From positions 1-45,442 of the forward strand of contig JBMOKZ010000379.1 in the NCBI GenBank assembly GCA_049324195.1: 45,442 nucleotides of DNA. Reading direction: 5' to 3'. The position numbers and the translations under genes were made by a program. The DNA is from Candidatus Zixiibacteriota bacterium. GTDB taxonomy: Bacteria; Zixibacteria; MSB-5A5; GN15; FEB-12. Below, in pieces: positions 166-20,124 of the stretch. How positions within the stretch are numbered: position 1 is the stretch's first letter; every line of letters starts with the position of its first letter. The notes beneath the pieces are model-generated. The model was not told where the DNA came from. It saw only the letters and a program-made list of their open reading frames with translations, and made no database searches.

Positions 166-3100
166 ATGAAAGTCTTATTGTATAAATCTTTTTTTATTGC
201 CTTTTTCTTTATCGCCGGAACTCTTTCCTCAAGGGCGACCGACGATATAGAAGTTATCGCTTCCGGCGACGAGACTTTCCAATTCAAGTTTTTCTGTAAT
301 TCCGACTTATCGAATCTTGTCCCGGTTTTTCTGACCGATTCCAGCCGGGTTTTCCAAAAATATGTTAAAGTGGGTATTCCTTACGGTTCCACCGCTCGAC
401 TTCTGGCGGTTGAAAGCCGGTCACCTGAACCTTTCACCTTCGATGAAAATACACGTGTTACTCAGGCTCCGCTGGTAAGTCTGTCGAAACCTCTGACGGT
501 ACGTGACCGCCAGATGGTAACAGTCATTATTTCTCCGGTTCAGGGCAGTGTGACTTATCGAGAAATTGAAATAACGATTGGTTTTTCGAAAGGAGAAGAC
601 CGGACTGACAATCAAGTTCGAACTGATCCGCATTTCGACCGTATTTTCCAGACTATCCTTGCCAATTACGACCGTTTCCGCACCTGGCCTTCCCCGGCGC
701 GGTCCACGCAGGCTCTTGCGGTGGCGGCTGTTGACCATCCCCTTTATAAAGCCGACCAATGGTATAAAATTTATGTTAACGAGACCGGTCTTTATCGTAT
801 CACCGGCTCTCAGTTGAGTGCCGCGGGTGTTTCCCTGACCGGCCTTCAAGCCGACTCCATCAGGATATTCAACAGCGGCGGATTGAAACTGTCCCTGTTC
901 AATGAGGAGCCCCGTCCCGAGTTCGAGGAAATAGCGATCGTGGTCGAGGACGGTGGCGACGGCCTGTTCGGAAACAACGACTATATTCTTTTTTACGGGG
1001 AATCGCTTAACCGCTGGCTTTTCGAGGCGGGTTCGTCCATAAGTCATACCAATAACCAGGTGGCGTCGGAAAACGTTTACTGGCTGTGCACTTCCGGAAC
1101 TTTCGAAATGCCCCCGGTCAGAATGGCGGTCGAGAATGCCACCCCAAGCGGCACGGAGACCGATATTACCTCATCCTGGCGCTGGGTCCGGGTAGAACAG
1201 GATATTTTTCTGGCTCCCGACGACGACGGTCATCTTCGCGATTATTACCGCTGGTACTGGTCCAAGGATACGCTGGTGACGTTTTCGGTTTCTACTCCGG
1301 CGGCAATTCCCGGCGATTCCGCTTATGTCTATATTAAAGCCCGCACCAGCGGGTCTTTGTCGGTGATCGATTACGTGAACCTGAAAATTAACGGGGTTAC
1401 CGGTTTGGATAAAAATTGTACCCGTTTTGAATGTGTTTACAGCACCGAAGCGCTGGTTGACGGGTTGAACAGCGTCGAGCTGCAGTTGACGCCCATCCGT
1501 CCCGAACCGAGCCGGCTTTCGCCTTATTTAGATTATCTGGATATTTCCTATTCTGCCTATCTGGAACCTTCGAACGGTAAACTGGACATGATTTTCGGTG
1601 ACCTGAGCGGTCAGTATCGAATTATCATCAACGACAACTTTTCCTCGGCGCCCTTATTGATAGACCTGACCGACCCGCGTCAGCCGTTCCGCCTGACCGG
1701 TTACCAGCGCAGTGCAGGTATGCTTTATTTCAGCGCCGTGTTTGAAGCCGGGAGCCATAATCGTTTTTACTGCGCTGACCCGACTTTGGCGTTATCCCCC
1801 GAGGCTGTCACTGCGGAAACCGCCTTTGCCAATCTTAGGGAAACCGACCGCCAGGTTGATTTGTTCATCGTCACTCCCCGGGTGTTCGCCAACCGCCTTG
1901 ACGAGTATGTCCAGTACCGGGAGGACGATGGTTACGCGGTGGAAATAGTGACGGTCGAAGATATCATGGACAATTTCTCCTACGGAGTTTACGACCCGGT
2001 GGCGATTCGTGATTTTCTGAAATTCGCTTACGAGAATTCTCCCGACCCGAAACCCTCGTCGGTACTTTTCGTCGGCGACGCCAATTTCGATTTTCTGGAC
2101 AAGCTGGAAACCGGCGTGCCCAACTATGTACCGCTTATGCTGCACGAATACAGCCAGGTCGATTACACTTATAACGACGACAACTATGTTTATTTCGGCG
2201 AGTACGGCGTTCTCGACGAGGACACCAGCTTTATTTTCCATCCCGACCGGGGTTACGAGATGATGACCGCCCGCTGGCCGGTCAGTTCCGTGAGCCAGAT
2301 AAACGTCATTATCGATAAAATAATGAATTACGAATCTCCGGCCAATTTCGGTTTCTGGCGGAACAACGTCACGCTGGTAGCCGACGATGCTTACGAGGGT
2401 ACGACCAACACCTACCAGTATTTCCATGCCGGCGATACCGATACTCTGGCCCGGGAGCATATCCCGCGCCATTTCAATATCGAGAAAATTTATCTCTGGG
2501 ATTATCCGCTGGTCAACCGGGAAAAACCGGAGGTCAACGATAAAATCGTGGAAAGCATCAACGACGGGACGCTGATTGTCAATTATGTCGGTCATGGCAA
2601 CGCGAATGTCTGGGCGCACGAACACGTGTTCCAGCGGCAGTCGGATTTGCCCCGCCTGACCAATCTCGAGATGCTGCCGCTGGTGGTCGCCGCTTCCTGC
2701 GAAATTGGTTTTATCGACAATCCCAAGAGTGAGGGCATGGGTGAGGATTTCCTTACCTGGACCAACGGCGGCGCCATCGGTGTTCTGGCGGCCACCCGTC
2801 TGGTTTATGCCTCCGATAATAAGGATTTTAATCAGATGGTATACGATGTTCTGTTGTACAACGATTCGCTTTCGATTTGTCAATCGATATACACCGCCAA
2901 GCTTCTGCGCCAGTACAATATCGATTCCACCATCTCGAAGCTGGAAAACGACCGGGCTTTCATCTATCTGGGCGGTCCTTTCGTTCGGCTCGGCCGACCG
3001 TTACTGGATATCGAATTCAGCGAACGCCCCGACAGCCTGGCGGCGCTGGCGCGCGTCCGGGTGGCGGGACGGGTGGTCGATGAAAACCTCCAGACCTTGA

Positions 3101-4050
3101 ACCGTAACGGTGTCCTTGAAGTTAACGTCTATGATTCCGAACGGGAAGTGCTTTACCGTGATGAAGGTGCCGATATCATGACCTATCTGGTGCAGGGACC
3201 GCTGATTTATCGCGGCTCGGCCTCGATTACGGCCGGCGAGTTCAATTTTGAGTTCATCAACCCCCTCGATATAAATTACGGCGGACAGGGCGCGAAGATT
3301 GTCGCCTACGCCCTCCTCGACGGTATTGACGGTATTGGTCTGGTTGATTCCATCCCGATTTCCGATTCCATCGTCATCAGTTCCGATTCGGTCGGACCGG
3401 TCATTTCCTTCAATTTCACCGGTCGCGAGAATTTCCTCAGCGGCGACGTTATCACCCCCGGGGAAACGCTCGAAATCACTCTGGTCGATTCCTCCGGGAT
3501 AAACCTGGTTGGCGGTCTGGGACACGGGATAACTCTGGAAATTGACCATAAACCCGAAAATATAATAAACCTTTCCGGCAGTTTTGAATATGACCAGGAT
3601 GATTTTACCACTGGCTCGTTGACCTGCAAGCTGGATGATTTGGGTCTCGGTGAACATCACTTCAAGATAAAGGCCTGGGATAACGCCAATAATTCCTCCT
3701 CGGTGGAATTTTCCGCCCGGGTCGTAGCTCAGGGAGTTCTGGCGATAAACAACCTGTTGAATTATCCCAATCCTATGAGCGAAAATACTACCTTTTACTT
3801 TGAATTAACTCAGCAGGTGGAAAAATTTTCCCTGGAGATCTTTACTCTCTCGGGCAAGAAGATTAAGTATTTTAACCAATATGGCTTAGGTGCCGATAAT
3901 TATCCTAACGGTAATTGTGAAATAACCTGGGATGGAAAAGACGCCGAAGGCGACCGGGTCGCCACCGGGGTCTATATCTATAAAGCCAAGGCTGTTCCGC
4001 TGTCTGGCGAAGCGGTCGAATCATTTGGAAAAGTAGTTGTTATTAATTAA
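166..4050 (+). CDS. porU: PorU-like T9SS C-terminal signal peptidase/sortase (peptidase C25, gingipain family) with its own T9SS C-terminal domain
   Basis: The track ORF starts at TTG 121. I prefer ATG 166 because it gives a classic signal peptide, MKVLLYKSFFIAFFFIAGTLSSRA. C25-type catalytic contexts are visible: LIVNYVGHGNANVW (His) and LPLVVAASCEIGF (Cys). The C-terminal ~95 aa resemble a T9SS sorting domain. The gene lies directly upstream of a PorV-like gene (17-nt gap), which is the conserved porU-porV arrangement. Confidence 0.7.
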   Translation: MKVLLYKSFFIAFFFIAGTLSSRATDDIEVIASGDETFQFKFFCNSDLSNLVPVFLTDSSRVFQKYVKVGIPYGSTARLLAVESRSPEPFTFDENTRVTQAPLVSLSKPLTVRDRQMVTVIISPVQGSVTYREIEITIGFSKGEDRTDNQVRTDPHFDRIFQTILANYDRFRTWPSPARSTQALAVAAVDHPLYKADQWYKIYVNETGLYRITGSQLSAAGVSLTGLQADSIRIFNSGGLKLSLFNEEPRPEFEEIAIVVEDGGDGLFGNNDYILFYGESLNRWLFEAGSSISHTNNQVASENVYWLCTSGTFEMPPVRMAVENATPSGTETDITSSWRWVRVEQDIFLAPDDDGHLRDYYRWYWSKDTLVTFSVSTPAAIPGDSAYVYIKARTSGSLSVIDYVNLKINGVTGLDKNCTRFECVYSTEALVDGLNSVELQLTPIRPEPSRLSPYLDYLDISYSAYLEPSNGKLDMIFGDLSGQYRIIINDNFSSAPLLIDLTDPRQPFRLTGYQRSAGMLYFSAVFEAGSHNRFYCADPTLALSPEAVTAETAFANLRETDRQVDLFIVTPRVFANRLDEYVQYREDDGYAVEIVTVEDIMDNFSYGVYDPVAIRDFLKFAYENSPDPKPSSVLFVGDANFDFLDKLETGVPNYVPLMLHEYSQVDYTYNDDNYVYFGEYGVLDEDTSFIFHPDRGYEMMTARWPVSSVSQINVIIDKIMNYESPANFGFWRNNVTLVADDAYEGTTNTYQYFHAGDTDTLAREHIPRHFNIEKIYLWDYPLVNREKPEVNDKIVESINDGTLIVNYVGHGNANVWAHEHVFQRQSDLPRLTNLEMLPLVVAASCEIGFIDNPKSEGMGEDFLTWTNGGAIGVLAATRLVYASDNKDFNQMVYDVLLYNDSLSICQSIYTAKLLRQYNIDSTISKLENDRAFIYLGGPFVRLGRPLLDIEFSERPDSLAALARVRVAGRVVDENLQTLNRNGVLEVNVYDSEREVLYRDEGADIMTYLVQGPLIYRGSASITAGEFNFEFINPLDINYGGQGAKIVAYALLDGIDGIGLVDSIPISDSIVISSDSVGPVISFNFTGRENFLSGDVITPGETLEITLVDSSGINLVGGLGHGITLEIDHKPENIINLSGSFEYDQDDFTTGSLTCKLDDLGLGEHHFKIKAWDNANNSSSVEFSARVVAQGVLAINNLLNYPNPMSENTTFYFELTQQVEKFSLEIFTLSGKKIKYFNQYGLGADNYPNGNCEITWDGKDAEGDRVATGVYIYKAKAVPLSGEAVESFGKVVVIN
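3730..4047 (+). other. T9SS C-terminal sorting domain (CTD) of the PorU-like protein
   Basis: LLNYPNPMSENTTFYFELTQQVEKFSLEIFTLSGKKIKYF...ITWDGKDAEGDRVATGVYIYKAKAV...GKVVVIN shows the NYPNP start and the GVYIY-type penultimate strand typical of Por secretion tails. Domain boundaries are approximate. Confidence 0.6.
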
Positions 4051-4067
4051 ATAAGTGGAGAATTGAT

Positions 4068-6728
4068 ATGAAAATGAGAAAAGCAATCGTTTCCTCTCTC
4101 GCTCTGATTTTTGTCTTGATGGCGGCTGTGGATGGTTTTGCCGACGTATCAAGCGCCGCGGTGTTGTTTTTGAGAATCGCCGCCGGTTCCAGGGCTTCGG
4201 CAATGGGAGAGTCCTTTGTAGCGGTTGCCGATGATGGTACCACCACTCACTGGAATCCCGCCGGTCTGGGGTCATACCCGCTCGCGGATGACTGGATCGA
4301 AAACAGCCTGCCGGATGAATATCGACCGGTTACGGCTTTTGCCGCCATTCCGAAAAACCGCAGCGGTCTGTCTATAGATTATGATATCTGGGCGCTTACC
4401 AGTAAGGGTCTTGTCCGGTTCGATGGAAAAAACTGGGAATCGTCGGAAACCTTCGATACCAAAACCGACGATGAACTCCAGAAAGTCATTGCCTCTTACT
4501 TTAATACCAAGGATGACGCGAAGCTGGTCCGGATGGTAACGATAGTCGCCGAGGCCAACAGTAAGAGAACCCTTCAGGAAATGACCACCCTGAAAGAAAA
4601 TATTCTCGCGGCAATACCTGCGGATTACAAACACCGTGAAGGCCTGCTGGGGAACCTTGACAGCCTGATGGTCAAGTACAATGAATGCAAGCTGAAATGG
4701 GAAAAAGTCGAGGAAATCGAATCGCAGTACAAGGAAGCCATGAAGGACAGCCTGATGAACATCGACGAAGCGGAGAAAATATACTTCGCCGTGGAAAAGT
4801 CCTGGGCGCGCTGGATACCCGAAGAAATCAAGGTTCCTTATAACGTGTTTTTCGATTCGGATTTGAAAATGATCGCCTCGGCGGGCGATAAATTGCTGGT
4901 CGGAACCTCGGACGGTCTGGTAGCTTTTAACGGTAAAAGCTGGCAGTCCCTAACCGTGGAAAATGGTCTGCCCTCGAACAATATTTTGACGTTCTGTACC
5001 TCCGACCAGAAAATTCTGGTTGGAACCGATTCCGGGCTCGTGGTTTTCGACGGCTTTTCTATCGACACCACCTCGCTGGCCGGCTGCCCGGCCGGAACGG
5101 TGACCGCTATCGGCGCCGACGGTCTGTCCAGTGTTTATGCCGTCGTCGATAACGACCTGTATCATTTTGATGGCAGCGCCTGGTCCAACAGCTTTGTCTA
5201 TACTCTGGAGCTCGAGGATACGCCCGAGAAAATCGCCGAAAAGTTTTCCGTTTACGGAACCGAGACTGAAAAAGAGAAATACCTGGCCAAGCTCGAGACC
5301 TTGAAAACCCCCCCGGCGCCTGTTGAACCCGAAGTCGAAGCGGATACAACCGGTGAAGCCGCCGCTGAGGGAGAGGCGGCCGAGGTGCAGCCGGAAGTCG
5401 CTGAGGCGACCCCGGAAAAGCTGGATGTCGCGGAAATGAGAATCCCCTTTCTTGCGGAATTCAAAGGCCGGGTCACCAGTATTTATGTGGCGTTCGATGA
5501 AACCGTCTGGGTCGGTACTGACTATGGGATCCTGTCGTTCAACGGCGAAAGCTGGCAGATGCCCGGTTATAAGGATTACACTGTCAGGGAGGGTGAAACG
5601 TTCGAGAATTTGATCGCTTTCAAGGAAAACAACACACCCGATGACGCGGAGCTTTATGCCGCCCAGCTGATGGAAATCAACGACCTGCCGGAGAAAACGG
5701 TGAAAGCCGGCGACGTTATGAAAATCTATTCCAACCCGGCCGCTTTACCTGTGAACGGTATTTCCCGGCACGAGAAAAAAATCATGTTCGCCACTCCCGA
5801 AGGCATGATCGAATACGGCGACGGCGCCTGGAGCCGTTCCGGAGCCTTGAATCTCGGTAGCACCGAGATCGTCGGTATTTCCTCGATCGATAACGAAGTT
5901 ATGGTGATGACCGATGAGCGGATAGTTGTCCGGGCCAAGGGACGAACCGAACTCACTTTCATGCACGTCAAGTGGCTTAAAGAACTGGCTGACGACATGT
6001 ACTATGAGTTTCTCTCGTTCGTCACGAGCAAGGGTGACCTGGGGACGTTCGGCGGCAACATCACTTACATTACTTATGGAAGTTTTATTCAGACGACTAC
6101 TTCTCCGGATGAACAGGGTCAGTTTGACGCCTTTGATCTGGCCATCACCCTCGCTTACGGTAATTCGCTGACCCGGCGGCTCAAATACGGTTTGTCGGCC
6201 AAACTGATTCACTCCCATCTCAGTCCTATCGGCGCCGGAAAAGAACAGGGCGACGGTATCTCCTGGGGTTTTGCGGTTGATTTCGGACTGCTCTATCATA
6301 TGACGCCGCGGCTTAACTGGGGTCTGGCAATCACCAATATCGGTCCCAAGATGCAGTATATCGACGCCGGTCAGTCCGATGACTTGCCGCGTAACCTTTC
6401 ATTCGGTTTCGCTTACAAGCTGATTCAGACCGATTATTACAAAATGTTGGTTACGGGCGAATTGAATAAAATCCTGGTCAGCCTGGATGACGGACTGTCC
6501 GAGGAATTCCGCGAAATGGTGATATCCGGAGGTGGTGAATTCACCTACGCCGATTTGCTCGCCGCCCGGGCCGGTTATTATTACGATAAGGAAGGTCAAC
6601 TTAAATATTTGACGCTCGGGTTGGGCCTGACGTTAAAAATCTTTAAATTTGATTTTGCTTATATTCCGAATAATGACGATATTGCCCTGGCGAATACGTT
6701 GCGTATGTCCTTCTCGGTACTGTTGTAA
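4068..6728 (+). CDS. porV: PorV/PorQ-family outer-membrane barrel protein interrupted by a ~550-aa insertion (Reg_prop-like propeller repeats, acidic P/E/A linker, LysM-like stretches)
   Basis: ATG is preceded by GTGGAG, and there is a signal peptide (MKMRKAIVSSLALIFVLMAAVDGFA). It is followed by AAVLFLRIAAGSRASAMGESFVAVADDGTTTHWNPAGLG, the N-terminal signature I associate with PorV/PorQ. The last ~270 aa have alternating-hydrophobic strands (YGLSAKLIHSHL, WGFAVDFGLLYH, WGLAITNIGPKMQY, LSFGFAYKL, LRMSFSVLL). The middle carries six GLxxF(D/N)GxxW-type repeats. Confidence 0.6.
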   Translation: MKMRKAIVSSLALIFVLMAAVDGFADVSSAAVLFLRIAAGSRASAMGESFVAVADDGTTTHWNPAGLGSYPLADDWIENSLPDEYRPVTAFAAIPKNRSGLSIDYDIWALTSKGLVRFDGKNWESSETFDTKTDDELQKVIASYFNTKDDAKLVRMVTIVAEANSKRTLQEMTTLKENILAAIPADYKHREGLLGNLDSLMVKYNECKLKWEKVEEIESQYKEAMKDSLMNIDEAEKIYFAVEKSWARWIPEEIKVPYNVFFDSDLKMIASAGDKLLVGTSDGLVAFNGKSWQSLTVENGLPSNNILTFCTSDQKILVGTDSGLVVFDGFSIDTTSLAGCPAGTVTAIGADGLSSVYAVVDNDLYHFDGSAWSNSFVYTLELEDTPEKIAEKFSVYGTETEKEKYLAKLETLKTPPAPVEPEVEADTTGEAAAEGEAAEVQPEVAEATPEKLDVAEMRIPFLAEFKGRVTSIYVAFDETVWVGTDYGILSFNGESWQMPGYKDYTVREGETFENLIAFKENNTPDDAELYAAQLMEINDLPEKTVKAGDVMKIYSNPAALPVNGISRHEKKIMFATPEGMIEYGDGAWSRSGALNLGSTEIVGISSIDNEVMVMTDERIVVRAKGRTELTFMHVKWLKELADDMYYEFLSFVTSKGDLGTFGGNITYITYGSFIQTTTSPDEQGQFDAFDLAITLAYGNSLTRRLKYGLSAKLIHSHLSPIGAGKEQGDGISWGFAVDFGLLYHMTPRLNWGLAITNIGPKMQYIDAGQSDDLPRNLSFGFAYKLIQTDYYKMLVTGELNKILVSLDDGLSEEFREMVISGGGEFTYADLLAARAGYYYDKEGQLKYLTLGLGLTLKIFKFDFAYIPNNDDIALANTLRMSFSVLL

Positions 6729-6767
6729 CGGGTACCGAGTCTCGCTACCCCGGAAGGAGGAAGTTGC

Positions 6768-9700
6768 TTGCATAGGATGCAGTTTCTGGAGAAGATACTA
6801 TTAGTTTTAATAATATTCACCGGGCTGTCGCTGACAGCCCGGGCTGCTGATGACATCATAATCGGTAAAAAAGTCCCGGCGGAAAAAACCGTTACGGCTA
6901 ATCCTGTCCGCGGATTCGACATTAGCCCCTATCCCAACGAACGTCTTAATATCTCGTCGATGAAAAAAGGTGACAAGGTCTGGGCTCTGCCGTCCCGCGC
7001 GCTGGCCGCCGATTTCGATTCCACTATCAACGTCCTGGTTCTGCGCGTTCAGTTTCAGGAAGAAGTCGAGGATGACCCCAACACCACCGGCAACGGCATT
7101 ATGAACGTCACCCACCCCAAGGAGAACGTGAACGATTCCCTTGCCTATTTCGATTCGGTCGGCCACTGGGTCGATCCCCCGCCGCACGATTCGCTATATT
7201 TCGACGCCCATATGCGGTCGCTCAACCGCTACTGGGAAACCGTCTCCGATTCCGGCCTTCAATTGACCTGGAACATTTTTCCTTCGGGGGCCAATTCCGT
7301 TTATCAACTGCCACATGAGATGAGCTATTACGGCAAGTGCAGCTACGATTCTGTGGTGCTGGGACTTCAGAATTTCTTTATTGACTGCATTGAACTGGCC
7401 GATGAAGATCCTGATATCGCTTTCGCGGATTATCAGGCTATTATCATTTTCCACGCCGGCGCCGACCGTCAGAACGATCTCGGTTATCCGCTCACCTGTT
7501 GTGACCTCTTTACCGGTTATATCCGCTTTATCGATACCGCGCTGGTGGTCGATGATGGCGCCGCTGAGGTCAACTCGGCGGTCATGATGCCCGAGTATTC
7601 CAGTCAGGACAACCGGGCGGTGGCTATCAACGCCGTGATGGCGCACGAGTTTGGTCATCAACTGGGTTTGATTGACCTGTACAACACCTACTCCGCGGCG
7701 CTGATGTCCTGTCTGGGTGATTTTGCTTTGATGGACAATAACGGTTTCAACACCGGTCTGGAGATGCCCGAATGGTTCTCCAAGCCCTGGATCGGGACCG
7801 TCTTTGGCGCCATGCCCATTTACCCCTGCGCCTGGTCGCGGGCTTATCTCGGCTTTGATGAGGTGGTTGATTACAGGCAGGGTTCGGATATTCGGCTGGT
7901 GGCCGCCGAGGCTGCCCGGGAAGGCGTTAAAATCGCCCGTATCCCCATCTCCGAGATGGAGTACTATCTTATCGAGGTCCGGACCGACGATATGGACGGT
8001 ATCGAGGAAGTCGGGGTCAAATGGGACGCCGACGGTACCGGTATTTTCCTCTGGCCCAAAAACGAATATGTCGATTTCAACCGGGAGTACGATGCTCTCA
8101 TCCCCGGTGCGGGGATGCTGATATATCATGTCGATGAATCCGTGGCCTGGATGAATTTCGACGCCTCCGAATACGATACGCTCAATAATTTCGATGACAA
8201 CGACCTGCAATGGGACCGCGAACGTCGGTTTGTCAAGCTGGTCGAGGCCGACGGTATCGAGAATTTCCACGGCTATTATTCGGGCGGCTACGGCGAGGAG
8301 GACGATATGTTCCGAGAGGACAACAACGGTTCGTTTACGCCCAATACCAACCCGCCCGCCATCGATAATTCCGGCAACAACACGCATATTTATATCGAAA
8401 ACATCTCCCGTCTGGATACGCTTTTTCCCGGAGAATCGGTAATTTCGACCCTCGACACCATCATGACTTTCGACCTCGAAACCAGGGGACTGGTGCAGAA
8501 TTTCCCGGTCCGGGTCGGTCCTTACGGTTACAGCGTGATCGCCGATGACCTGAACTATGACGGAAAAACCGAAATAATTACTGCCTGCGGCAACCTGCTG
8601 GCGGTATTCACCGCCGACGGTCATAATTTCCTGATGGAGCAACACGGGTTCGACAGCGGTCATGTCTATTATGACGACGCCGCGGCAATAATCAATCCGG
8701 GGGAATCGTTCGAACCGGACAGCACCGATATTGTCATCCATCTGAATCCCCAGCCCGTACCGCTTTACGTGCGCACCTCAGAAATCATGTCCTGCGCGCC
8801 CGTAACCGGGCAGTTCGATACGACGATGCTGCTCGATAAATACGTCGCGATCGGTTTTCCGACTTCTATCAGCATGGGCGTAGTTTTGTTTTATACGACC
8901 GATGACAACAATCTGGACGGCCGGTCAGACGCCGTCAACGCCATCGGGGCGCCGCTGCCGACCAGAGGATACCCGATTGCCCTTTCGTTCGGAAGTAAAC
9001 TATATGCCCTGACCGATTCCGGGTACGTCTATTTCAAGGAGGCTTTGACGGCTCCCGCGCTGGCATACCCATATTTTAAAAACGAGGAATACTTCGGCAT
9101 CTGCCGTATCAGCGAAAACCGTCTGCTGCTTATGGCGGGGGACACCCTGGGTGACGATAACGAACAAACCAGAATTTACTATATGGGGGGTACGGCCGAG
9201 ACCGTGGATTCGCTGGTGCTCGACGGTTATTACAAATACGGCCCGGTGCTGGTGGATGTCGATAAAGACTACCAGCCGGAAATCGTCGCTTGCACCCCCG
9301 ACGGCGATATCGTTTACGTGACGGTGGACACGACCAGCGTCATGCCCTCGTTCAGTATTCTCGCGCACCGCAAGACCGGTTATCGTTTGACGACCAACCC
9401 GGCAGTGGGCGATGTCGACCTCAACGGCTACCCGGATATAATTATCGGCGGGCAGAACGCCGTGTATGCTTTCAATCAGGACCTGACCCTCAAAACCGGC
9501 TTCCCGATCGAAGTCAATGACCGTTACCCCGACGATATCGTCGCCGCCGCGCCGATCACGACGGACCTTCGGTCCGGAGGCGTCCCGGAAATAATCTTCC
9601 CGACGGAAGTGGGTAATATCAACTCGTTCGGTCCTGACAAAACCTATGGTTTCCCGCTTTCAGCGGGGGAATACGGGCTGGGGTCGTGTGTTTATTTCGT

Positions 9701-10178: not shown

Positions 10179-10196
10179 ACAACCGAGGAATAGAAA

Positions 10197-11126: not shown

Positions 11127-11140
11127 ATCAGGTTGGACCA

Positions 11141-11947
11141 ATGAGGAAACTAATACCGAGTATTATTTTCGTTTTTATTCTCTGTGTCGGTACCGCCGCC
11201 ACGGCGGTGGAGCTTAAATCCACGCCCGTGCAAAACGCTATGGAAATCCAGCTGGCGCTGGCCAGCCGGGGCGATGAATTCGACCAGCTAAACCGGAAGA
11301 AAACCGATGATGTGACCGCCACCGAGAATAAAATCGAAACAGGGACCAACAGTCCCAAAGCGGTCTGGAAAGCCGGTTTGCTTTCCGCGCTGGTGCCCGG
11401 AGCTGGGGAGTTCTATCTCGGTAACAAGGCCAAAGCCCGGTATTTTTTCGCCGCCGAGGCTCTGACCTGGGTGGGTTTTATCGCTTTCCGGACATACGGC
11501 AGCTGGCGCAAAGATGACTATATCGAATACGCCGCCAAATACGCCGACGCCCATATCGGCGACAAAGACGATGAATTTCACGACCTGGTCGGGTTTTACT
11601 CCAGCATCTATGAATATAACACTCTCGGCCGGGTAGGTGACCCGGAACGGGCGTATCTCGAAGACACTCCGGAGAATCACTGGCTCTGGGACAGTCCCGA
11701 GGACCAGGCGACTTACCGGGCGCTCAAGACGAGCAGTAAGGATGCTTATAACCGGGCTAATTTCGCGCTCGGGGTGGCCGCCATCGCCAGAATTATTTCG
11801 GTAATTGACGCGGTGCGCGACGCCCGCAAACAAAACCAGCGCATCGATAAGGAATTTTCCCGGTCAGATAAGATTAATTATAAATTCAGCGTAAATCCGT
11901 TCAGCGAAACCGGACAGGTTAAATTTACCCTTTATGCTCCGTTTTAA
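11141..11947 (+). CDS. Hypothetical envelope protein, paralogue B of a tandem pair
   Basis: Signal peptide MRKLIPSIIFVFILCVGTAATA. The shared motif is LSALVPGAGEFYLGNKAKARYFFAAEALTW. A second shared block is ARIISVIDAV, versus NRLISGFEAY in paralogue A. The C-terminus QVKFTLYAPF ends in Phe. Confidence 0.55.
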   Translation: MRKLIPSIIFVFILCVGTAATAVELKSTPVQNAMEIQLALASRGDEFDQLNRKKTDDVTATENKIETGTNSPKAVWKAGLLSALVPGAGEFYLGNKAKARYFFAAEALTWVGFIAFRTYGSWRKDDYIEYAAKYADAHIGDKDDEFHDLVGFYSSIYEYNTLGRVGDPERAYLEDTPENHWLWDSPEDQATYRALKTSSKDAYNRANFALGVAAIARIISVIDAVRDARKQNQRIDKEFSRSDKINYKFSVNPFSETGQVKFTLYAPF

Positions 11948-11950
11948 AAT

Positions 11951-12913
11951 ATGGCTTTTAAAAAGCTTGTTCTGTTATTGACGGCCGGATGGCTATTAAT
12001 TACGGCCTGTTCCAAACCTCCATCGGATATCCAGGAAAACGCCCCTGTCGCCGTACCGCTTGCCATGCTCGTCGAGAGGGAAATATCCGGGACGGTTCTG
12101 GGTCAGTCCCTGAAAACGCCGATGGGAATAACGGTCGATTATCAGGGACAATTATATGTCTGCGACGCCGGTAATAACCGGCTGCTTCGCTTCGATGAAA
12201 AGTTTATGCCGCAAAGAGAGTACGGCGGTTACGGGAGCCTCGAGGGCCTGTTCAATCATCCCGGATATATTGTTATCGATAACGGGCTGAATCTCTGGGT
12301 CGCCGATGTCGGCAACCGGCGGTTGAGCCGTCACAACCGGGAATTGAATTTCGTCGACGAAATCAAGCTCGTCGATTATGACGAACCGCTCAAGTACGGC
12401 GAACCCTCGGGTATCGCTCTGACGCCCTACGGCGAAATCTGGATGTGTGACCGGGAAAAAGGCCGCCTCGCTATCTTCGATAATGTCGGCCAGTTCGACC
12501 GTTTTATCGGCGAATTCGGATATTCCGGCGGGCAGCTTCTGCAACCGGAAAAAATCATTTCCGATAGCCATGATAATTTCATCGTCTGTGACGCCGGTAA
12601 CCGCCGGATTGCGGTGTATGACCGCTATGGCAATTTTTCTTACGACCTCAGAAATAATGTTTTCGATTATCCGGTGGCGGCGGCGGCGGGGAACGATGGT
12701 AACCTGTGGGTGGTGGATAAAACCGCGGGGCGGGTGTATCTGGTCAGCCGACGCGGGGAAATCCTGTTCGAAACCGGTCCTTCGATTCCCGGGGTGAACA
12801 CCCCTCTCAAGAACCCGTCGGATATTATCGTCCTCAAAGACGGCCGGTTGATAATCTCCGACAGCGGTAATAACCGTCTGCTGGTATGTCAGGTCATGTT
12901 AGATAAACAGTAG
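11951..12913 (+). CDS. NHL-repeat beta-propeller lipoprotein
   Basis: Lipobox LLITAC follows the signal peptide. NHL-type blades repeat: CDAGNNRLLRFD, VADVGNRRLSRHN, MCDREKGRLAIFD, VCDAGNRRIAVYD, VVDKTAGRVYLVS, ISDSGNNRLLVC. The gap to the preceding gene is 3 nt. Confidence 0.75.
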   Translation: MAFKKLVLLLTAGWLLITACSKPPSDIQENAPVAVPLAMLVEREISGTVLGQSLKTPMGITVDYQGQLYVCDAGNNRLLRFDEKFMPQREYGGYGSLEGLFNHPGYIVIDNGLNLWVADVGNRRLSRHNRELNFVDEIKLVDYDEPLKYGEPSGIALTPYGEIWMCDREKGRLAIFDNVGQFDRFIGEFGYSGGQLLQPEKIISDSHDNFIVCDAGNRRIAVYDRYGNFSYDLRNNVFDYPVAAAAGNDGNLWVVDKTAGRVYLVSRRGEILFETGPSIPGVNTPLKNPSDIIVLKDGRLIISDSGNNRLLVCQVMLDKQ

Positions 12914-12923
12914 CCGTGCGGTT

Positions 12924-15900
12924 ATGCCGGGGTATTTCAGGAAAATATCATCCTACATCTTAATCGCTTCCGTAATGTGCGTGTCCGTTGCGGTGGCTGG
13001 AGCCAGAATCCAGCTGGTCGGAAACAATATTCCCAAAAACCTGACTGTGGGCAGCCGTTATATTTTCGCTGGTTCCGACACGCTTTATTTGAACGACCGG
13101 CTGCTGACGTGCGAAGTCGATTACCGTTTCCTGTCCGGGTACGGGTATTTCGATCTGTCGGCGCTGAATTTTTCAGCGAATGATACTCTGACCGTCGTTT
13201 ACACCCCTTTGCCGATCTGGCTTCAGAAGACTTACGGTCGGGCGCTGGAGCCGCTCGCCGCGTCGGCGAGCCGGGCAGTCAAACTTCCTGAGACAATCGA
13301 GGCGGTCGAGCGGATGCAACGTTCTCAAATCGATATTTCCGGAGCCAAATCATTTCGTTTTTCCGCCCGTTCAGCGGGCGCTTCGGAGTTCAGCCAGTCG
13401 CTTGATTTGAATATCGCCGGAGAACTGTCCCCGGGATTGGAAATATCCGGTTCCATTTCAGACCGGGGTTATGACCCCGCCTATGGTACGGCTAACAGCC
13501 GTCTCAATGAAATCGAGAAGATAAATATCCGTTTGAATTCCCGGAGGCTGACCGCCCAGGTAGGGGATATCCGGGTCAAAGCCGTGTCGTCCGATATTGT
13601 CGAAAAAAACGTGTCCGGAGCTTCATTCACACTATCATATCCCGCCTGGGGCGTGCGGGGAATGGTTGCCAGGCCGAAAGGGCTTTTCAGAACTTACAAA
13701 TTTTACGGTCAGGACGGTTTCCAGGGACCTTACCAGATCGGGGAGGGAAGTTCCATTTCACCGGTTGTGCCCGGCTCGGAAACTGTCTGGCTGGACGGCT
13801 CGCAACTGGAACGGGGAGCCAACAAGGATTACACCGTCGATTACGTGACCGGCCGAATTACGTTCAACGTCACCCGGCTTATTGATAGTCGCAGCCGGCT
13901 CGAAGTCGATTACGAGCCGCAGGCGACCGACTACAAGGGCGAGCTGTACGCCGCCAGCGCCGGGACAAAGATGAAGGATTCGCTCTTTTTCCTGACGGTC
14001 GATATCCTGCGCGAAGGGGACGATAAAAACCAGCCGCTTACCGGCGCGCTCTCGGAAAGCGATAAAAATTTGTTAAATGCGGGCGGCGACAGTTCCGTCT
14101 ACCGCTCGGGCGTAACGGCCGATACCTCGGGCAGTTTTATTCTGGTCGCCGACAGCCTGCCCGATTCTATATATCGTTTTGTCGGGGAAGGCAACGGGGA
14201 GTACGACGCGACCTTCAGCTATGTCGGCGACAATGCCGGTGGCTACCGTTTTCTCGGGAACGGTAATTACGAATATGTCGGCGACGGCGCCGGCGATTAC
14301 CGGCCGGTGGTGCTCGTACCCGCCCCGGTGCGAACGGATTATTTTCAGCTGACCACCGGCAGCCGCAGCGCTTTGCTCGGAACGCTTTCCGCCGATATCC
14401 GCACGACCAGCCATGATAAAAATCTTTTTTCGTCCCGTGATGACGGCGATAATACCGCCTGGTATTACGCACTCGGTGCGGCGCGGGACTGGTTCTGGCG
14501 CGACCGCATCAATCGCGTTGAGCTCAACCGGCGTGTGGTCGAAGCTGACTATAAGGTTCGGCAGCGGTTGAACCGGGCGGATTTCAGCCGGGATTTTCTG
14601 TTGCCGGTGAATTATGTCGTGCACGACGACGAAACATTGAACGAAATCAATGGTACGGTCAGCCCTTTACGGCAGTTCACTCTGACATCCTTTTATTCGA
14701 ATCTTGAATATGGAAGCAGTTTTTCAGCCCGCACTGGCGGCGTCAGCGCTGAACTTTATCCGTTGGAAAAACTGACCCTGTCCGGCGGCTGGCGGGGAAT
14801 TGCCTCCGACTATGAGGAGTCTCCGGGCAGCGGTCAGGGTTCGGCGGATAACGTCCAAACCACTCTCGACTACCTTTTCGACGAGCGGTTGCGACTTAAG
14901 ACCGGATTCGAATACGACGACCGCGTCAATGTCTATACGGCTCAAAAGCGGGGTACGCGCTATAACCGGGCCTGGCTCGAACTGGCCGGGAACGGGGTAA
15001 ATGTCCGCTATGAATATTACAACGAGGATACCCTGATGCAGGCGTGGACGGAAACGCTCGAACGCAACCGGGTGACCTCGGCTTTTAACCATCAGCTCGG
15101 CGACCTGGACTACGACCTGACGCTGTCGTATCAATGGCTCAACCAGCCACAGGTCGAAGAGACAAATTTCCTCGGGAGAATGAACCTGCGTTATTACCGT
15201 CCGCAGAACAAACTGCGTCTGGCGAGTTCGTACACCATCTCCGAAGAACTTCGCAACGAGCGGGGGCTGACTTATCTCGAAGTCGGGGAGGGTCTGGGGA
15301 ACTATATCCTCGAAGACGGCGAATATATCAGCGATCCCGACGGGAACTATATCCAGGTTGAGGAAATCCTGTCGGACAACGCCCGGGTGCGGCGGGGACA
15401 GAAAACTTTCGATGTCAGCAAGGATTGGCGGGTGGTGATGGTACGGTTCAATTCCGAGATTGAGGAGGAATTGCTTGACAGCGGCCGGCGTGCGGTATGG
15501 TGGGCGCTTCCGTTTTACAGCGACGAAAACGAACCGTATCTCTATTTTGACCGGCGATACGATGTTGATTTAAGAGCTGTTCCTCTGGGCGGTTTTCACG
15601 CCATCAACATCCATCTCTACGAAAAAACCGAAATAAGGTTCATCAGCGGCGCCTCAAGGAAACTTCGGGACACCCAAATCGAACTTGCGTTCAAACAGAA
15701 GTTACATGAAAGTTATTTCGTGGAAGCCCTGGAGCTGTTCAAGACCGCCCGCGACAGTTATTACAGCGGCGCGGGGAATATCAAGGGTTATAAAATAAAT
15801 CTGACATACCGGCTGCAGACCGCTTTCGGGGAACTAAGCGCGGGCGGCTCGTATCGCCGGGCAGACTCTGACGAGGATGAACGTTCGCGGATAATTTCGC

Positions 15901-16169
15901 TTTTAACCGGCAGCCGCCTTAAAATCGCGACTCGGGGAGAGATCCGAACGGAGCACGAACTTTACCGGCAGGAATTCGATAACCTCACCGGTTCCCCGTC
16001 CTACAAGCTAACCGGCAATAAACCCGGCGAGAAGGGCGCAGAATGGAAGCTCAGTTTTAACTATGGGGTCAGTGGCGGCCTGAGAATAAATCTGTCGGTG
16101 TCGGGTCGTCACGCCGACAACCGCACCGCTCGTATTACCGGTCGAGGGGAGGTGGTCGCCGGGTTTTAG
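12924..16169 (+). CDS. Large (1081 aa) uncharacterised secreted protein, probable outer-membrane beta-barrel
   Basis: Signal-like N-terminus MPGYFRKISSYILIASVMCVSVAVAGA. The sequence is rich in Y/R/G/D/N with many short alternating strands (LDYDLTLSYQWL, LRLASSYTISE, YKINLTYRLQ, WKLSFNYGVSGGLRINLSVSG). It ends in GEVVAGF, an aromatic terminal residue typical of OMPs. I recognise no family with confidence. Confidence 0.55.
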   Translation: MPGYFRKISSYILIASVMCVSVAVAGARIQLVGNNIPKNLTVGSRYIFAGSDTLYLNDRLLTCEVDYRFLSGYGYFDLSALNFSANDTLTVVYTPLPIWLQKTYGRALEPLAASASRAVKLPETIEAVERMQRSQIDISGAKSFRFSARSAGASEFSQSLDLNIAGELSPGLEISGSISDRGYDPAYGTANSRLNEIEKINIRLNSRRLTAQVGDIRVKAVSSDIVEKNVSGASFTLSYPAWGVRGMVARPKGLFRTYKFYGQDGFQGPYQIGEGSSISPVVPGSETVWLDGSQLERGANKDYTVDYVTGRITFNVTRLIDSRSRLEVDYEPQATDYKGELYAASAGTKMKDSLFFLTVDILREGDDKNQPLTGALSESDKNLLNAGGDSSVYRSGVTADTSGSFILVADSLPDSIYRFVGEGNGEYDATFSYVGDNAGGYRFLGNGNYEYVGDGAGDYRPVVLVPAPVRTDYFQLTTGSRSALLGTLSADIRTTSHDKNLFSSRDDGDNTAWYYALGAARDWFWRDRINRVELNRRVVEADYKVRQRLNRADFSRDFLLPVNYVVHDDETLNEINGTVSPLRQFTLTSFYSNLEYGSSFSARTGGVSAELYPLEKLTLSGGWRGIASDYEESPGSGQGSADNVQTTLDYLFDERLRLKTGFEYDDRVNVYTAQKRGTRYNRAWLELAGNGVNVRYEYYNEDTLMQAWTETLERNRVTSAFNHQLGDLDYDLTLSYQWLNQPQVEETNFLGRMNLRYYRPQNKLRLASSYTISEELRNERGLTYLEVGEGLGNYILEDGEYISDPDGNYIQVEEILSDNARVRRGQKTFDVSKDWRVVMVRFNSEIEEELLDSGRRAVWWALPFYSDENEPYLYFDRRYDVDLRAVPLGGFHAINIHLYEKTEIRFISGASRKLRDTQIELAFKQKLHESYFVEALELFKTARDSYYSGAGNIKGYKINLTYRLQTAFGELSAGGSYRRADSDEDERSRIISLLTGSRLKIATRGEIRTEHELYRQEFDNLTGSPSYKLTGNKPGEKGAEWKLSFNYGVSGGLRINLSVSGRHADNRTARITGRGEVVAGF

Positions 16170-16174
16170 GCGTT

Positions 16175-17815
16175 ATGAAAATGCTTTTACTTGTCATATT
16201 CCTTCTGGTCTGCTGGCCGGCATCAGTTTGCGCCGATGAGGTAAAATTTGTGGGCGAGCCGCCTCACGACGGAAAGATGCTGGGAAACGGTATAAATTTT
16301 CTGCTGCGGCAGGGACTTGATATTGAGGCAATCAGCGATTCCGTGCTCGGATGGTTATCCCGAGACGGTTATCTTGACGCCGGGATAGATATCGATTCTA
16401 ACCGGATTTCCATTACAGCCGGGCGGCGGTTTATTCTGGATAAGCTGGTGGTGGCTGGTGATTCGACGGTGGTTTATCCTAACGGGGACGTTTTCATCGA
16501 GGAGAATATCGACCGTGCCGTGCAGGCGGTGCTCGAGAAATATTATGACCGGGGTTTCTATTATACCCGGGCCAATATTATTTCGGTAAAACGCGAGGAA
16601 AACCGCGTCACGCTGGAACTGGAACTGTTGAAGGGTCCGCTCGTGACGGTCGGGAAAAATATCCTGCGCGGATTGACCCGAACCAGGCCGGACATTGTCC
16701 GTAAGTATTTACCTATCCGCGATGGCGACACTTTGACCGGGGAAACTGTCCGCCGGGCTGAGAACGCTGCGGCCGCCGTACCCTTTGTCGATTTCCGACC
16801 GCCTGTGACCGTACGGGCCGAATCCGGATTCAATCAGGCCGATCTTGTATTCGATTTCGTCGAGAAAAGACAATTCGCTTTTAACGGCGGCGCCGGGTAT
16901 ATCCCCGACGACCCTTCGGGCCTGGTCTGGAATATGGACTTGACCCTGAGCAATCTTTTCGGTGACGGTCGCCGCCTGCGCGTATATTCAGAACGGAAAA
17001 AAAAGGGCCGCAATATCCTCGATTTGTCGTATTCACAGCCGGTTTTCCTGCTGGGGCTGGGGGAGGCCGATTTCAAGGTCGCTACTCGCGATTATCGCGA
17101 CCAGTTTTATGAGTTCGCGCTCGATGGCGCCTATCGCACGGCCTTGAAACCGGGATTTATCACCGGTCTGTCGCTCAGCTGGAAAAGAGTCGAGCCGTCG
17201 ACCATTAACCCGGCTTATTCCCGTTTCACCGCAGGTTTTCTTTTAGAACGCCGGTCGCTTGACAGCGATTACAATCCTGCAAATGGTTACGTCGTCAACT
17301 GGACTATTGCGTTCGCGTATCGGAAGTATGATGAGGATACCCTGATGACGTGGGAAGCGGTATCATACAACGAAACCCGTACGGAGGTCGCCGCCGATTA
17401 TTACCGGAAACTGTTCGGTTCGCTGGTCTTCCATGTCGGAGTCAATTACCGGGGGCTGGAAACCGGCGAGGCTCTGCCGGCGCTGGCGGAACTTTATTTT
17501 GTTGGGGGACCGGGGACGATCCGCGGTTTCCGCAACGAACAATTCTCGGCCCGGCGCACGGCTTTCGGCACCCTGGAACCCCGATGGCGCTTCAGCAACG
17601 GTTATATGTTCCTGTTCTATGACGCCGCTTACCTGAACCGTCATCTCGCTGCCGGTGATGACCGGGTCGCTACCGAGGAGCTATATCGGTATGGTTATGG
17701 TTTCGGACTGGCCCTGAACGATTCGCAACGCTCGCTCAAAGTGGCGCTTGGCTGGAACCGGGATATGCCGCTCAACCAGCCGCGACTTTCGATCGAATTG
17801 TCATCCGACATTTAA
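16175..17815 (+). CDS. Omp85/BamA-TamA family outer-membrane protein (POTRA plus surface-antigen barrel)
   Basis: Signal peptide MKMLLLVIFLLVCWPASVCA. A POTRA-like region (ILRGLTRTRPDIVRKYLPIRDGDTL) is present. The barrel carries the loop-6 type motif YFVGGPGTIRGFRNEQF characteristic of Omp85 proteins. The gap to the upstream gene is 5 nt. Confidence 0.7.
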   Translation: MKMLLLVIFLLVCWPASVCADEVKFVGEPPHDGKMLGNGINFLLRQGLDIEAISDSVLGWLSRDGYLDAGIDIDSNRISITAGRRFILDKLVVAGDSTVVYPNGDVFIEENIDRAVQAVLEKYYDRGFYYTRANIISVKREENRVTLELELLKGPLVTVGKNILRGLTRTRPDIVRKYLPIRDGDTLTGETVRRAENAAAAVPFVDFRPPVTVRAESGFNQADLVFDFVEKRQFAFNGGAGYIPDDPSGLVWNMDLTLSNLFGDGRRLRVYSERKKKGRNILDLSYSQPVFLLGLGEADFKVATRDYRDQFYEFALDGAYRTALKPGFITGLSLSWKRVEPSTINPAYSRFTAGFLLERRSLDSDYNPANGYVVNWTIAFAYRKYDEDTLMTWEAVSYNETRTEVAADYYRKLFGSLVFHVGVNYRGLETGEALPALAELYFVGGPGTIRGFRNEQFSARRTAFGTLEPRWRFSNGYMFLFYDAAYLNRHLAAGDDRVATEELYRYGYGFGLALNDSQRSLKVALGWNRDMPLNQPRLSIELSSDI

Positions 17816-17852
17816 TTGTTGACTCCGACGGTCCGGACTTCTATTGTCCGGT

Positions 17853-19283: not shown

Positions 19284-19316
19284 CAATTATGCCTATTGGG
19301 TGATTATTTACCCAGC

Positions 19317-19346
19317 CGGGCTCGTGCAATACGAGCCCGTTTTTTT
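19317..19346 (+). terminator. Rho-independent terminator
   Basis: A 9-bp GC-rich stem, CGGGCTCGT (19317-19325) pairing with ACGAGCCCG (19331-19339), has loop GCAAT and is followed by TTTTTTT (19340-19346). Confidence 0.7.
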
Positions 19347-19531
19347 GTGTGCGTGGTTGTCCATCGGGTCATCCCACCCCACCAAAGGGGCGGACCACCC
19401 CTTTTATGTCATTCCCGGCTTGACTGGGAATTCAGGTTCCCTCGTTTTAATGCCTGCATTGGTACGCGATTTTCGATGTTCCGCGTCGGTCAGCTTCAGA
19501 CAGGACGCCGACTGGTTGTCAGATACTGGCT

Positions 19532-20089: not shown

Positions 20090-20124
20090 ATCCATAACAA
20101 TCACTTGGGGAGTTATGTTTTAAT

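Follow-up and report, generated by a model that had tools for sequence, protein, structure and literature searches.

A 45,442-nucleotide (nt) stretch of contig JBMOKZ010000379.1 from a Candidatus Zixiibacteriota bacterium was analysed, and this whole stretch is hereafter called the window. Nine co-directional open reading frames (ORFs) on the + strand span positions 166–18698. We found that the block they form is real and conserved, and that it joins a type IX secretion system (T9SS) sorting trio to an NHL-barrel-Omp85(-UbiA) unit that stands alone across several phyla. This joining of T9SS sorting genes to an uncharacterised giant-barrel module is what is new here, and the family of the giant barrel (ORF7) is its most interesting element. 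In the reading that we favour, and to which we give about even weight, the nine genes make up a composite envelope operon in which the giant-barrel module is separable from the sorting trio and the barrel acts as a conduit for general envelope physiology.

A first-pass annotation of this DNA had described nine co-directional genes with gaps of 3–39 nt, and the measured spacing agreed with it (in order, 17, 39, 18, 14, 3, 10, 5, and 28 nt). The likely start of porU is the ATG at 166, the ORF itself opening at a TTG at 121, and the 165 nt at the contig end, 5' of porU, are AT-rich and non-coding. The features of the block, with the first strong terminator-like hairpin 3' of it, are as follows (aa, amino acids; CTD, C-terminal domain; HMM, hidden Markov model; AF2, AlphaFold2).

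166–4050, + strand: ORF1, PorU-type T9SS sortase with a C25 peptidase and a C-terminal Ig-like region/CTD (NF033707, PF01364)
4068–6728, + strand: ORF2, PorV/PorQ-family barrel with an insertion of ~550 aa (NF033709, AF2 model, Foldseek)
6768–10178, + strand: ORF3, secreted M6-like zinc metalloprotease with FG-GAP and a probable T9SS tail (HEFGH, sub-cutoff HMM matches)
10197–11126, + strand: ORF4, DUF5683-like secreted protein, paralogue a, ending in TVKF (PF18935, 24.9 bits)
11141–11947, + strand: ORF5, DUF5683-like secreted protein, paralogue b, ending in YAPF (PF18935, 26.4 bits)
11951–12913, + strand: six-bladed NHL beta-propeller lipoprotein (NHL 96.8 bits, lipobox LITAC)
12924–16169, + strand: ORF7, giant predicted outer-membrane barrel of 1081 aa (AF2 model; no Pfam family)
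16175–17815, + strand: ORF8, Omp85-family protein with ~3 POTRA domains and a 16-strand-type barrel (PF01103, POTRA)
17844–18698, + strand: ORF9, UbiA-family membrane prenyltransferase (PF01040, 120.3 bits)
19317–19339, + strand: strong intrinsic-terminator-like hairpin, 10-bp stem with 7 G-C pairs and a T7 tail, the first one 3' of UbiA

Internal terminators had been named as something that could split the block. A consensus scan of the window detected no strong intrinsic terminator in any of the eight gaps, and no convincing one was found within the block. Terminator-like sites numbered 29 in the window against 25.7 expected after shuffling; since promoter- and terminator-like sites were both near the shuffled expectation, the scan neither proves nor breaks the operon. 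A G+C-rich hairpin (GGGCCGGGTCAGAGGCCCGG) was also seen at 141–160 in the AT-rich leader, 5 nt 5' of the likely PorU start, and could be regulatory.

Gene order around the barrel in other lineages

The first-pass annotation had called ORF7, which is identical in sequence to NCBI ACOYVF_13380, an orphan 1081-aa putative barrel ending in Phe. When a profile was searched against 1.84 billion representatives, 2982 clusters (50% identity) were returned at E ≤ 1e-3, and 1940 remained at a threshold of E ≤ 1e-30. Hence, judged by sequence, ORF7 is a member of a previously unnamed family and not an orphan. The terminal Phe held, the C-terminus of ORF7 reading VVAGF and Phe being the last residue in 78 of 88 relatives, and a barrel, a very large one, is also what the model of ORF7 predicts. 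Among the best 150 clusters, the full-length ones had ~1000–1230 aa and the shorter ones matched part of the profile. When one genome per GTDB species was scanned with profile A3, a 12-sequence alignment subset of the family, at least 588 loci were confirmed. Their labels, which are those on the deposited metagenome-assembled genomes (MAGs) and are doubtful in some cases, were Zixibacteria, TA06, KSB1, Latescibacterota, LCP-89, Calditrichota, Edwardsbacteria, Ignavibacteria/Melioribacteraceae, and 'Bacteroidetes' MAGs, together with the cultured Rosettibacter primus. A further search added MROS_2604 from Melioribacter roseus P3M-2 as well as proteins from Rosettibacter firmus and Ignavibacterium sp., all annotated as hypothetical. 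Among the loci listed (at least 588), the named carriers belonged only to lineages of the Fibrobacteres-Chlorobi-Bacteroidetes (FCB) superphylum. One locus labelled 'uncultured Alphaproteobacteria' (L060, CAYUIF010000006.1) contained NHL-barrel-Omp85 in a neighbourhood the same as that of an FCB-type locus (L045), so that its label is probably wrong.

Subsequently, 89 loci were compared by phmmer with the window proteins and by all-versus-all clustering of the neighbours, the recurrent neighbours being annotated by Pfam. Gene calls in these loci were simple longest-ORF calls, and the neighbourhoods covered ±10 kb around the barrel match. Four classes of gene order were distinguished.

Class I, ~16 loci (the Zixibacteria clade to which the window belongs, a second deep clade, Zixibacteria SM23_81, and TA06): PorU-PorV-M6-DUF5683 (one or two)-NHL-barrel-Omp85-UbiA
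Class II (KSB1, Latescibacterota, LCP-89, Calditrichota, and others): NHL-barrel-Omp85(-UbiA) only
Class III (Ignavibacteriales/Melioribacteraceae): barrel between an HlyD-ABC-FtsX ×4 set and NUDIX-pfkB-mtnA, with NHL and Omp85 not adjacent
Class IV ('Bacteroidetes' MAGs): sucC-gatB-tpiA-barrel

The nine-gene order was kept where the barrels share just 23–57% identity (two deep Zixibacteria-type clades, SM23_81, and TA06); the barrel of the second deep Zixibacteria-type clade is ~23% identical to that of the window. The TA06 version has a normal-sized PorV of 328 aa, one DUF5683-like gene, and no Omp85. In the second clade and in TA06, the block is kept while the Bat operon that follows it in the window is not, and the upstream flanks differ. 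Since the flanks thus differ between class I genomes, it is the block as such that has been retained. The Bat operon is also kept downstream in the window's clade, so that part of the conservation there is general local synteny. In Zixibacteria SM23_81, an extra gene of ~1027 aa was observed between the two DUF5683-like genes (L020, 4831–7914).

Of 88 loci, 36 had an NHL gene immediately before the barrel (position −1), 30 had Omp85 immediately after it (+1), and ~20 had UbiA at +2 or +3. The spacing of the NHL, barrel, and Omp85 genes was −14 to +10 nt in the window and in locus L001. No porU or porV was detected within 10 kb of the barrel in class II loci. Hence, the five partner proteins of the first-pass annotation are not tied to porU/porV in general: NHL-barrel-Omp85(-UbiA) is self-standing in KSB1, Calditrichota, Latescibacterota, and LCP-89. 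Six class II loci have the module right after rplM-rpsI-rpsB-tsf-pyrH-frr and before dtd; other class II loci place it beside urocanase, glgA, RNase G, or mdh. In E. coli, the rpsB-tsf-pyrH-frr block lies upstream of bamA. The six loci resemble the rpsB-tsf-pyrH-frr...bamA-skp supra-operon of Proteobacteria/Bacteroidota in these neighbours and in the presence of an Omp85 gene, but uppS, cdsA, rseP, skp, and lpxD are absent, and their Omp85 gene does not encode a canonical BamA. The barrel of Ignavibacteriales lies 3' of a TolC/HlyD/ABC/FtsX gene set.

A check of the gene order in relatives, which the first-pass annotation had proposed, therefore gave a divided answer. The order was kept across deep Zixibacteria and TA06, whereas Ignavibacteriales carry the barrel without these neighbours and one Zixibacteria genome has the block in two places. 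In that genome (CP070824.1), porU-porV lies at 2.03 Mb and DUF5683(×2)-NHL-barrel-Omp85-UbiA-Bat at 3.07 Mb, ~1 Mb apart. Remnants of the M6 gene were observed at both sites: an N-terminal piece after PorV (L006, 12448–12987) and pieces including the tail before paralogue a of the DUF5683-like pair (L007, 6887–7297). These fragments at both breakpoints indicate that the break runs through the protease gene, and the split is either a rearrangement through that gene or an assembly error. A second Zixibacteria-labelled locus (L022) carries NHL-barrel-Omp85-UbiA with no porU/porV upstream. Taken together, the split in CP070824.1 and L022 suggest that the sorting trio and the barrel module are separable.

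In a rough midpoint-rooted neighbour-joining tree of the barrels, class I loci fell on several deep branches and classes III and IV were nested. This crude tree is compatible with an old porU/porV-barrel linkage that was later lost. A family designated F0 at first looked like tail-carrying cargo that was enriched around the barrel, but it was dropped as a single-linkage mix with histidine kinases and GGDEF proteins among its members.

The sorting trio, the giant barrel, and its partners

ORF1 matched the PorU model NF033707 with 668.5 bits (cutoff 420) over aa 195–1292 of 1294. The C25 peptidase domain gave 267.8 bits with PF01364, and FlgD_ig gave 29.3 bits (cutoff 27), while Por_Secre_tail scored just 17.5 bits. 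A signal peptide could be read directly off the sequence. By the curated equivalog cutoff of NCBIfam, ORF1 is PorU, which agrees with its earlier description as a PorU-like C25 peptidase; its sortase activity is predicted.

ORF2 (886 aa) scored 235.9 bits with the PorV/PorQ family model NF033709 (cutoff 90) and was below the cutoff of both equivalogs (PorV NF033710, 174.9 against 250; PorQ, 87.9 against 220). By its profile match it is a member of the PorV/PorQ family, so that the PorV-like assignment was sustained at the family level, but the protein is not a plain barrel. The AF2 model (predicted local distance difference test score, pLDDT, 81.7; predicted template modelling score, pTM, 0.75) has 14 strands within aa 628–885. 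A conserved N-terminal segment (aa 31–68) is followed by the insertion (aa ~75–623; nt ~4290–5936) and then by the barrel (aa ~628–886). In Foldseek, this barrel matched the solved PorV of F. johnsoniae (8gl6_F; E 4e-18, target-normalised TM-score 0.61, root mean square deviation 4.8, 25% identity). The insertion, which lies before strand 1, comprises in the model the blades of a propeller, a bundle of helices, and stretches similar to LysM; it resembles the Reg_prop propellers of BT4673 (Foldseek, E 3e-11), and homologues of ORF2 have precomputed LysM and Reg_prop Pfam matches. A six-helix bundle at aa 137–243 and an acidic, Ala/Glu/Pro-rich linker of ~37 aa modelled with low confidence (aa 415–451) were also noted within it. 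Its composition, a propeller with a possible peptidoglycan-binding part, recalls by analogy the separate T9SS protein PorE. Compared with the T9SS attachment complex of Bacteroidota (PorU-PorV-PorQ-PorZ), the window thus offers a PorU, a barrel that matches solved PorV, and an adjoining protein with a probable tail, but the insertion of ~550 aa is not in solved PorV, and neither PorQ nor PorZ is in the window.

ORF3 carries HEFGH at aa 299–303 (nt ~7662–7676), a motif that 15 of 16 orthologues retain, TA06 included. All of its M6 matches were below the cutoff: NF052323, 258 bits (600); TIGR03296, 61.8 bits (110.8); and PF05547 Peptidase_M6, 21 bits (22). FG-GAP_3 scored 21.7 bits in the region C-terminal to the protease domain. 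The type-A T9SS CTD (aa 1049–1136; nt ~9912–10175) scored 22.3 bits with Por_Secre_tail PF18962 (cutoff 27) and 21.1 bits with TIGR04183 (cutoff 23), and the C-termini of the orthologues have conserved strands (...F.DIAVIR / FFKMA.VK). Because these scores are below the curated cutoffs, the T9SS tail is probable and not certain. Accordingly, the earlier claim of an M6 protease with a T9SS CTD stands for an M6-like protease with HEFGH, and the CTD has to be put more cautiously. The nearest model, NF052323, describes a 'T9SS-dependent M6-like inactivated metalloprotease'; with HEFGH intact and a sub-cutoff score, ORF3 is related to that inactivated family but lies outside it. NF052323 (M6-like), NF052324 (PorU2), and NF052325 (PorV2) are consecutive NCBIfam models and were matched below the cutoff by ORF3, ORF1, and ORF2, respectively, which suggests that the PorU-PorV-M6 trio recurs elsewhere. 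Judged from these matches, the M6-like protease may be more than a casual cargo. Our literature search found no description of PorU2 or PorV2.

ORF4 and ORF5 scored 24.9 and 26.4 bits with PF18935, against a cutoff of 26.7. They share 27% identity (E 3e-10) and are thus paralogues, as the first-pass annotation had proposed. DUF5683 was precomputed in orthologues, with one match, that of the L005 orthologue of paralogue b, unmarked. Members of this DUF5683-like family have a signal peptide, and 30 of 31 end in F, W, or Y, which bears out the aromatic termini noted earlier and is as in substrates of the β-barrel assembly machinery (BAM). A literature search on DUF5683 gave no relevant paper.

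The NHL lipoprotein and the Omp85-family protein were both identified as first annotated. The former matched the 'Pizza' and TRIM71 NHL propellers of the PDB with E values of 1e-27 to 4e-31. ORF8 (546 aa) scored 51.1 bits with PF01103 (cutoff 24) and 39 bits with the POTRA model PF07244 (cutoff 21.3), and 90.6 bits with the BamA model TIGR03303, for which the cutoff is 297. Its best PDB sequence matches were POTRA4-5 and the start of the barrel of BamA (E 7e-6), and 25 of 31 family members end in F. A length of 546 aa leaves room for ~3 POTRA domains, against five in BamA. From these matches, ORF8 is an Omp85 superfamily member of TamA-like size and not a canonical BamA. The module resembles BAM and the translocation and assembly module (TAM) in this combination of POTRA domains with an Omp85 barrel of TamA-like size, and in the nearby propeller lipoprotein, as in the case of BamB. 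It differs from them in the number of POTRA domains, in having a six-bladed NHL propeller against the eight-bladed BamB, and in having a giant barrel as the neighbour with no TamB/DUF490. ORF9 scored 176.5 bits with PRK12884 (cutoff 269). Its closest NCBIfam models were archaeal-type (di)geranylgeranylglyceryl-phosphate transferases (DGGGP-synthase-like; 176 and 164 bits, both below the cutoff). UbiA accompanies the barrel-Omp85 pair in ~20 loci from several phyla and may connect the module with lipids.

For ORF7, the copy of Pfam that we searched gave no family. The AF2 model, built from a 65-sequence alignment, had a pLDDT of 81.4 and a pTM of 0.67. It contains ~36–38 long antiparallel strands (assigned by DSSP) at aa 136–1080, mostly with pLDDT above 90, preceded by a signal peptide, a small beta domain (aa 27–100), and a disordered linker. 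A small beta-sandwich is inserted at aa 256–335 (nt ~13689–13928). On this model, ORF7 would form a very large outer-membrane barrel with an approximate strand count. A Gly/Tyr/Asp-rich, repeat-like segment (…GEGNGEYDATFSYVGDNAGGYRFLGNGNYEYVGDGAGDYRP…) was observed at aa 397–461 (window 14112–14306), with pLDDT below 50; its pattern is kept family-wide, and the segment may serve as a plug loop or as a cap.

Among known systems, the barrel was compared with SprA/Sov, the T9SS translocon. SprA has 36 strands (PMC10994853) and is described as the largest single-chain barrel (PMC11705866). The likeness lies in a single-chain barrel with a comparable number of predicted strands, in its being encoded near PorV in Zixibacteria and TA06, and in a local similarity of 55 aa: aa 280–334 of ORF7 matched the SprA model TIGR04189 with 25.9 bits (cutoff 200) at positions 603–655 of a model of ~2300 positions. 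Distant members of the family also matched this model at positions 600–654 (26–31 bits, E 1e-7 to 3e-8). The same motif also resembles DUF2460/phage-tail sequences. In Foldseek against the PDB, SprA chains ranked first (8gl6_A, E 4e-9), but with query-normalised TM-scores of just 0.23–0.27, and BtuB (E 1.5e-8), ushers, MtrB, and SlpA (30-strand type) came within an order of magnitude of SprA. With the TM-scores low and ordinary barrels nearly equal, the safe statement is 'very large barrel' and not 'SprA homologue'. We also sought homology with SprA by sequence: the family profiles A1 (E ≤ 1) and A3 (E ≤ 10) and the motif-region profile A4 (E ≤ 10), searched against all PDB sequences, did not retrieve SprA of F. 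johnsoniae. Furthermore, ORF7 has 1081 aa against ~2400 aa, less than half, so that it lacks the large extracellular cap domains of SprA. The family also coexists with a reported SprA in Ignavibacteriota (PMC11705866). By score, length, and sequence match, ORF7 falls outside SprA/Sov, and the link between the two, as far as sequence and model go, is weak.

LptD, TamB, and TonB-receptor identities for ORF7 were likewise rejected, there being no such domain match (no OstA/LptD; Pfam and NCBIfam, E ≤ 0.01). The arrangement is analogous to LptD-LptE in that a lipoprotein is encoded along with a large barrel, but the barrel has ~36–38 predicted strands against 26 in LptD, and the NHL propeller is unrelated to LptE.

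Possible functions of the module

In the reading that we favour, Part A of the block (166–10178) would be a T9SS sorting trio of the PorU sortase, the PorV carrier barrel, and an active M6-like protease with a tail. The propeller/LysM-like insertion of PorV would be lineage-specific, and the protease would be either a cargo or a fixed partner of PorU and PorV. Part B (11951–18698) would be an FCB-wide module around the barrel of ~36–38 strands, to which the DUF5683-like pair (10197–11947) would be attached in this lineage. We infer that the near-overlapping NHL, barrel, and Omp85 genes encode a complex. In it, the lipoprotein, whose gene usually overlaps that of the barrel or starts a few bases upstream of it, and the barrel may form a stoichiometric plug or cap complex, by analogy with LptE and LptD, and the TamA-sized Omp85 may be a dedicated insertase or a partner needed by such a large barrel. 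The assembled barrel would be a gated large-bore conduit for general envelope physiology and not a T9SS-specific part. The family appears to be distinct from SprA, since its profiles leave SprA unmatched and since MROS_2604 stands beside the reported SprA of Melioribacter. In Zixibacteria and TA06, Parts A and B would be co-transcribed as a surface-biogenesis supra-operon, by analogy with the bamA-skp operon of Bacteroidota, which also encodes the T9SS component SkpA (PMC10994853).

Several observations weigh against this reading. A nine-gene order that persists with barrels of ~23% identity and in TA06, while the flanks have changed, is a classic signature of functional coupling, and Parts A and B may work together. 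The position of the PorU/PorV-linked loci on several deep branches of the barrel tree fits ancestral linkage. To our knowledge, a bore of 36–38 strands is otherwise known solely from the T9SS translocon SprA, the top Foldseek match, and several members of the barrel family independently match TIGR04189 at the same positions, 600–654. The NHL-barrel and Omp85-barrel complexes and the co-transcription are put forward by analogy. The coexistence of SprA and the barrel comes from one BLAST survey, with unstated cutoffs, in which SprA, PorV, and Plug were reported for Melioribacter and Ignavibacterium (PMC11705866).

A different reading sharpens the idea of the first-pass annotation. The giant barrel would be a translocon of T9SS type, whether a compact analogue or a distant homologue of SprA, and the whole block one secretion/attachment machine: PorV would dock on the barrel, PorU would process the cargo, the NHL protein would be the plug, and the Omp85 the dedicated insertase. 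We consider this unlikely. The adjacency of PorU-PorV-cargo and NHL-barrel-Omp85 in ~16 loci of the deep Zixibacteria-type clades and TA06, with tiny gaps in the window, speaks for it, as do the predicted strand number comparable to that of SprA, the leading Foldseek rank of SprA chains with the repeated local TIGR04189 match, and the restriction of the named carriers to FCB lineages among the loci listed, which is the same range as that of the T9SS tail domain. Against it, TM-scores to SprA are low while BtuB-type barrels reach nearly equal E values, and the TIGR04189 match covers only ~55 aa that are also phage-tail-like. SprA of F. johnsoniae is not matched by the barrel profiles, most carriers have the barrel away from porU/porV, and the family coexists with SprA as reported for Melioribacter and Ignavibacterium. 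In addition, a Pfam scan of the 20 downstream ORFs found no further T9SS families, and no PorLM motor or PorKN ring genes lie nearby. A bolder form of this idea seems to us similarly improbable: the NHL protein, the barrel, and the Omp85 would constitute an unrecognised FCB-wide protein-export translocon, a second giant single-chain class beside SprA, wired to PorU/PorV in Zixibacteria and TA06 as a motor-less, compact T9SS-like pathway. In favour of a translocon role, Caldithrix has TIGR04183 proteins while the Bacteroidetes-type gliding machinery is absent (PMC5317091), and the canonical T9SS explains such non-Bacteroidota FCB phyla poorly. If true, the export translocon could explain the export of tail-bearing proteins in FCB phyla without PorKLMN/Gld machinery.

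The NHL-barrel-Omp85 unit could also be a housekeeping outer-membrane biogenesis machine, BAM/TAM- or Lpt-like, with the T9SS genes adjacent through shared envelope regulation. The Omp85 and a BamB-like lipoprotein would then be the active parts, and the barrel their main client, an abundant porin with a structural role or a tether of the envelope, like SlpA of Deinococcus, or an exporter of lipid or lipopolysaccharide. The first-pass annotation had named, as grounds against its own idea, a lack of synteny between the partners and porU/porV or a match to an ordinary LptD/BamA housekeeping locus; the data came near to this case, yet no gene matches LptD or canonical BamA. The six loci behind rpsB-tsf-pyrH-frr fit such a role, as do the best matches of the Omp85 to POTRA4-5 of BamA, the co-located lipid enzyme UbiA, the position of the Ignavibacteriales barrel after the TolC/HlyD/ABC/FtsX set, and the SlpA-type 30-strand barrels among the Foldseek matches. 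Moreover, a propeller lipoprotein adjacent to an Omp85 recalls BamB-BamA. However, signatures of LptD/OstA, TamB, or a canonical BamA are lacking, the BamA score being far below its cutoff and the POTRA domains ~3 and not 5; an FCB-only range among the loci listed would be odd for a universal biogenesis role; and Ignavibacteriales and class IV keep the barrel without an adjacent Omp85 or NHL gene. On balance, we find this role doubtful. That the adjacency is inherited history without functional meaning, in a slowly rearranging region of Zixibacteria, strikes us as very improbable. The unrelated Bat operon (MoxR/vWA/BatA-D) is indeed also kept directly downstream in the window's clade, and CP070824.1 tolerates a split, but in the second Zixibacteria-type clade and in TA06 the block persists with neither the Bat operon nor the same upstream flank, NHL-barrel-Omp85 adjacency extends across several phyla, and the genes are separated by 3–39 nt without strong terminators between them.

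Barrels in which one chain supplies over 30 strands are extremely rare, and here a family of ~3000 clusters is predicted to reach that size. It has no name and no literature, and it includes the cultured Melioribacter and Rosettibacter; we likewise found no paper that combined Zixibacteria and T9SS. The conserved partners of the barrel, namely the propeller lipoprotein and the short Omp85, and its lineage-specific fusion into a porU-porV operon bear on two questions: how very large barrels are assembled, and how proteins with T9SS tails exit the cell in lineages other than Bacteroidota. Even a purely housekeeping module would mark an unknown core outer-membrane component in several poorly studied phyla.

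Remainder of the window

Downstream of UbiA, a 107-aa ORF with no Pfam match (18960–19283) is followed by the strongest hairpin of the region, the one at 19317–19339 listed above. A 150-aa ORF at 19296–19748 overlaps this hairpin and is probably not a gene. A low-GC island (GC 0.26–0.35, against ~0.52 around it) lies at 19950–22050 between UbiA and a BatD-like gene, and contains a 274-aa ORF without a Pfam match (20125–20949) and a DUF3800 protein (21020–21748). Since UbiA and the BatD-like gene are just ~60–150 nt apart in four other Zixibacteria genomes, the island looks like a MAG-specific insertion; it gave no PADLOC matches and has no clear flanking repeats.

A complete Bat-type (aerotolerance) operon occupies 22072–31434, with genes for BatD-like, MoxR AAA+, DUF58, TPR, unknown, BatA/vWA, vWA, TPR, and BatD proteins. 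The window's Zixibacteria clade shares this position directly 3' of UbiA (L001, L003, L004, and L007). Further downstream, a resistance-nodulation-division efflux set (OEP, HlyD, and AcrB) was found at 35065–40679, and BshC of bacillithiol synthesis, followed by a GT4 glycosyltransferase that is possibly BshA, at 40528–43410. A tRNA-Sec gene lies on the − strand at 45136–45230 (ARAGORN; Rfam RF01852, 68 bits), and hence the organism probably uses selenocysteine.

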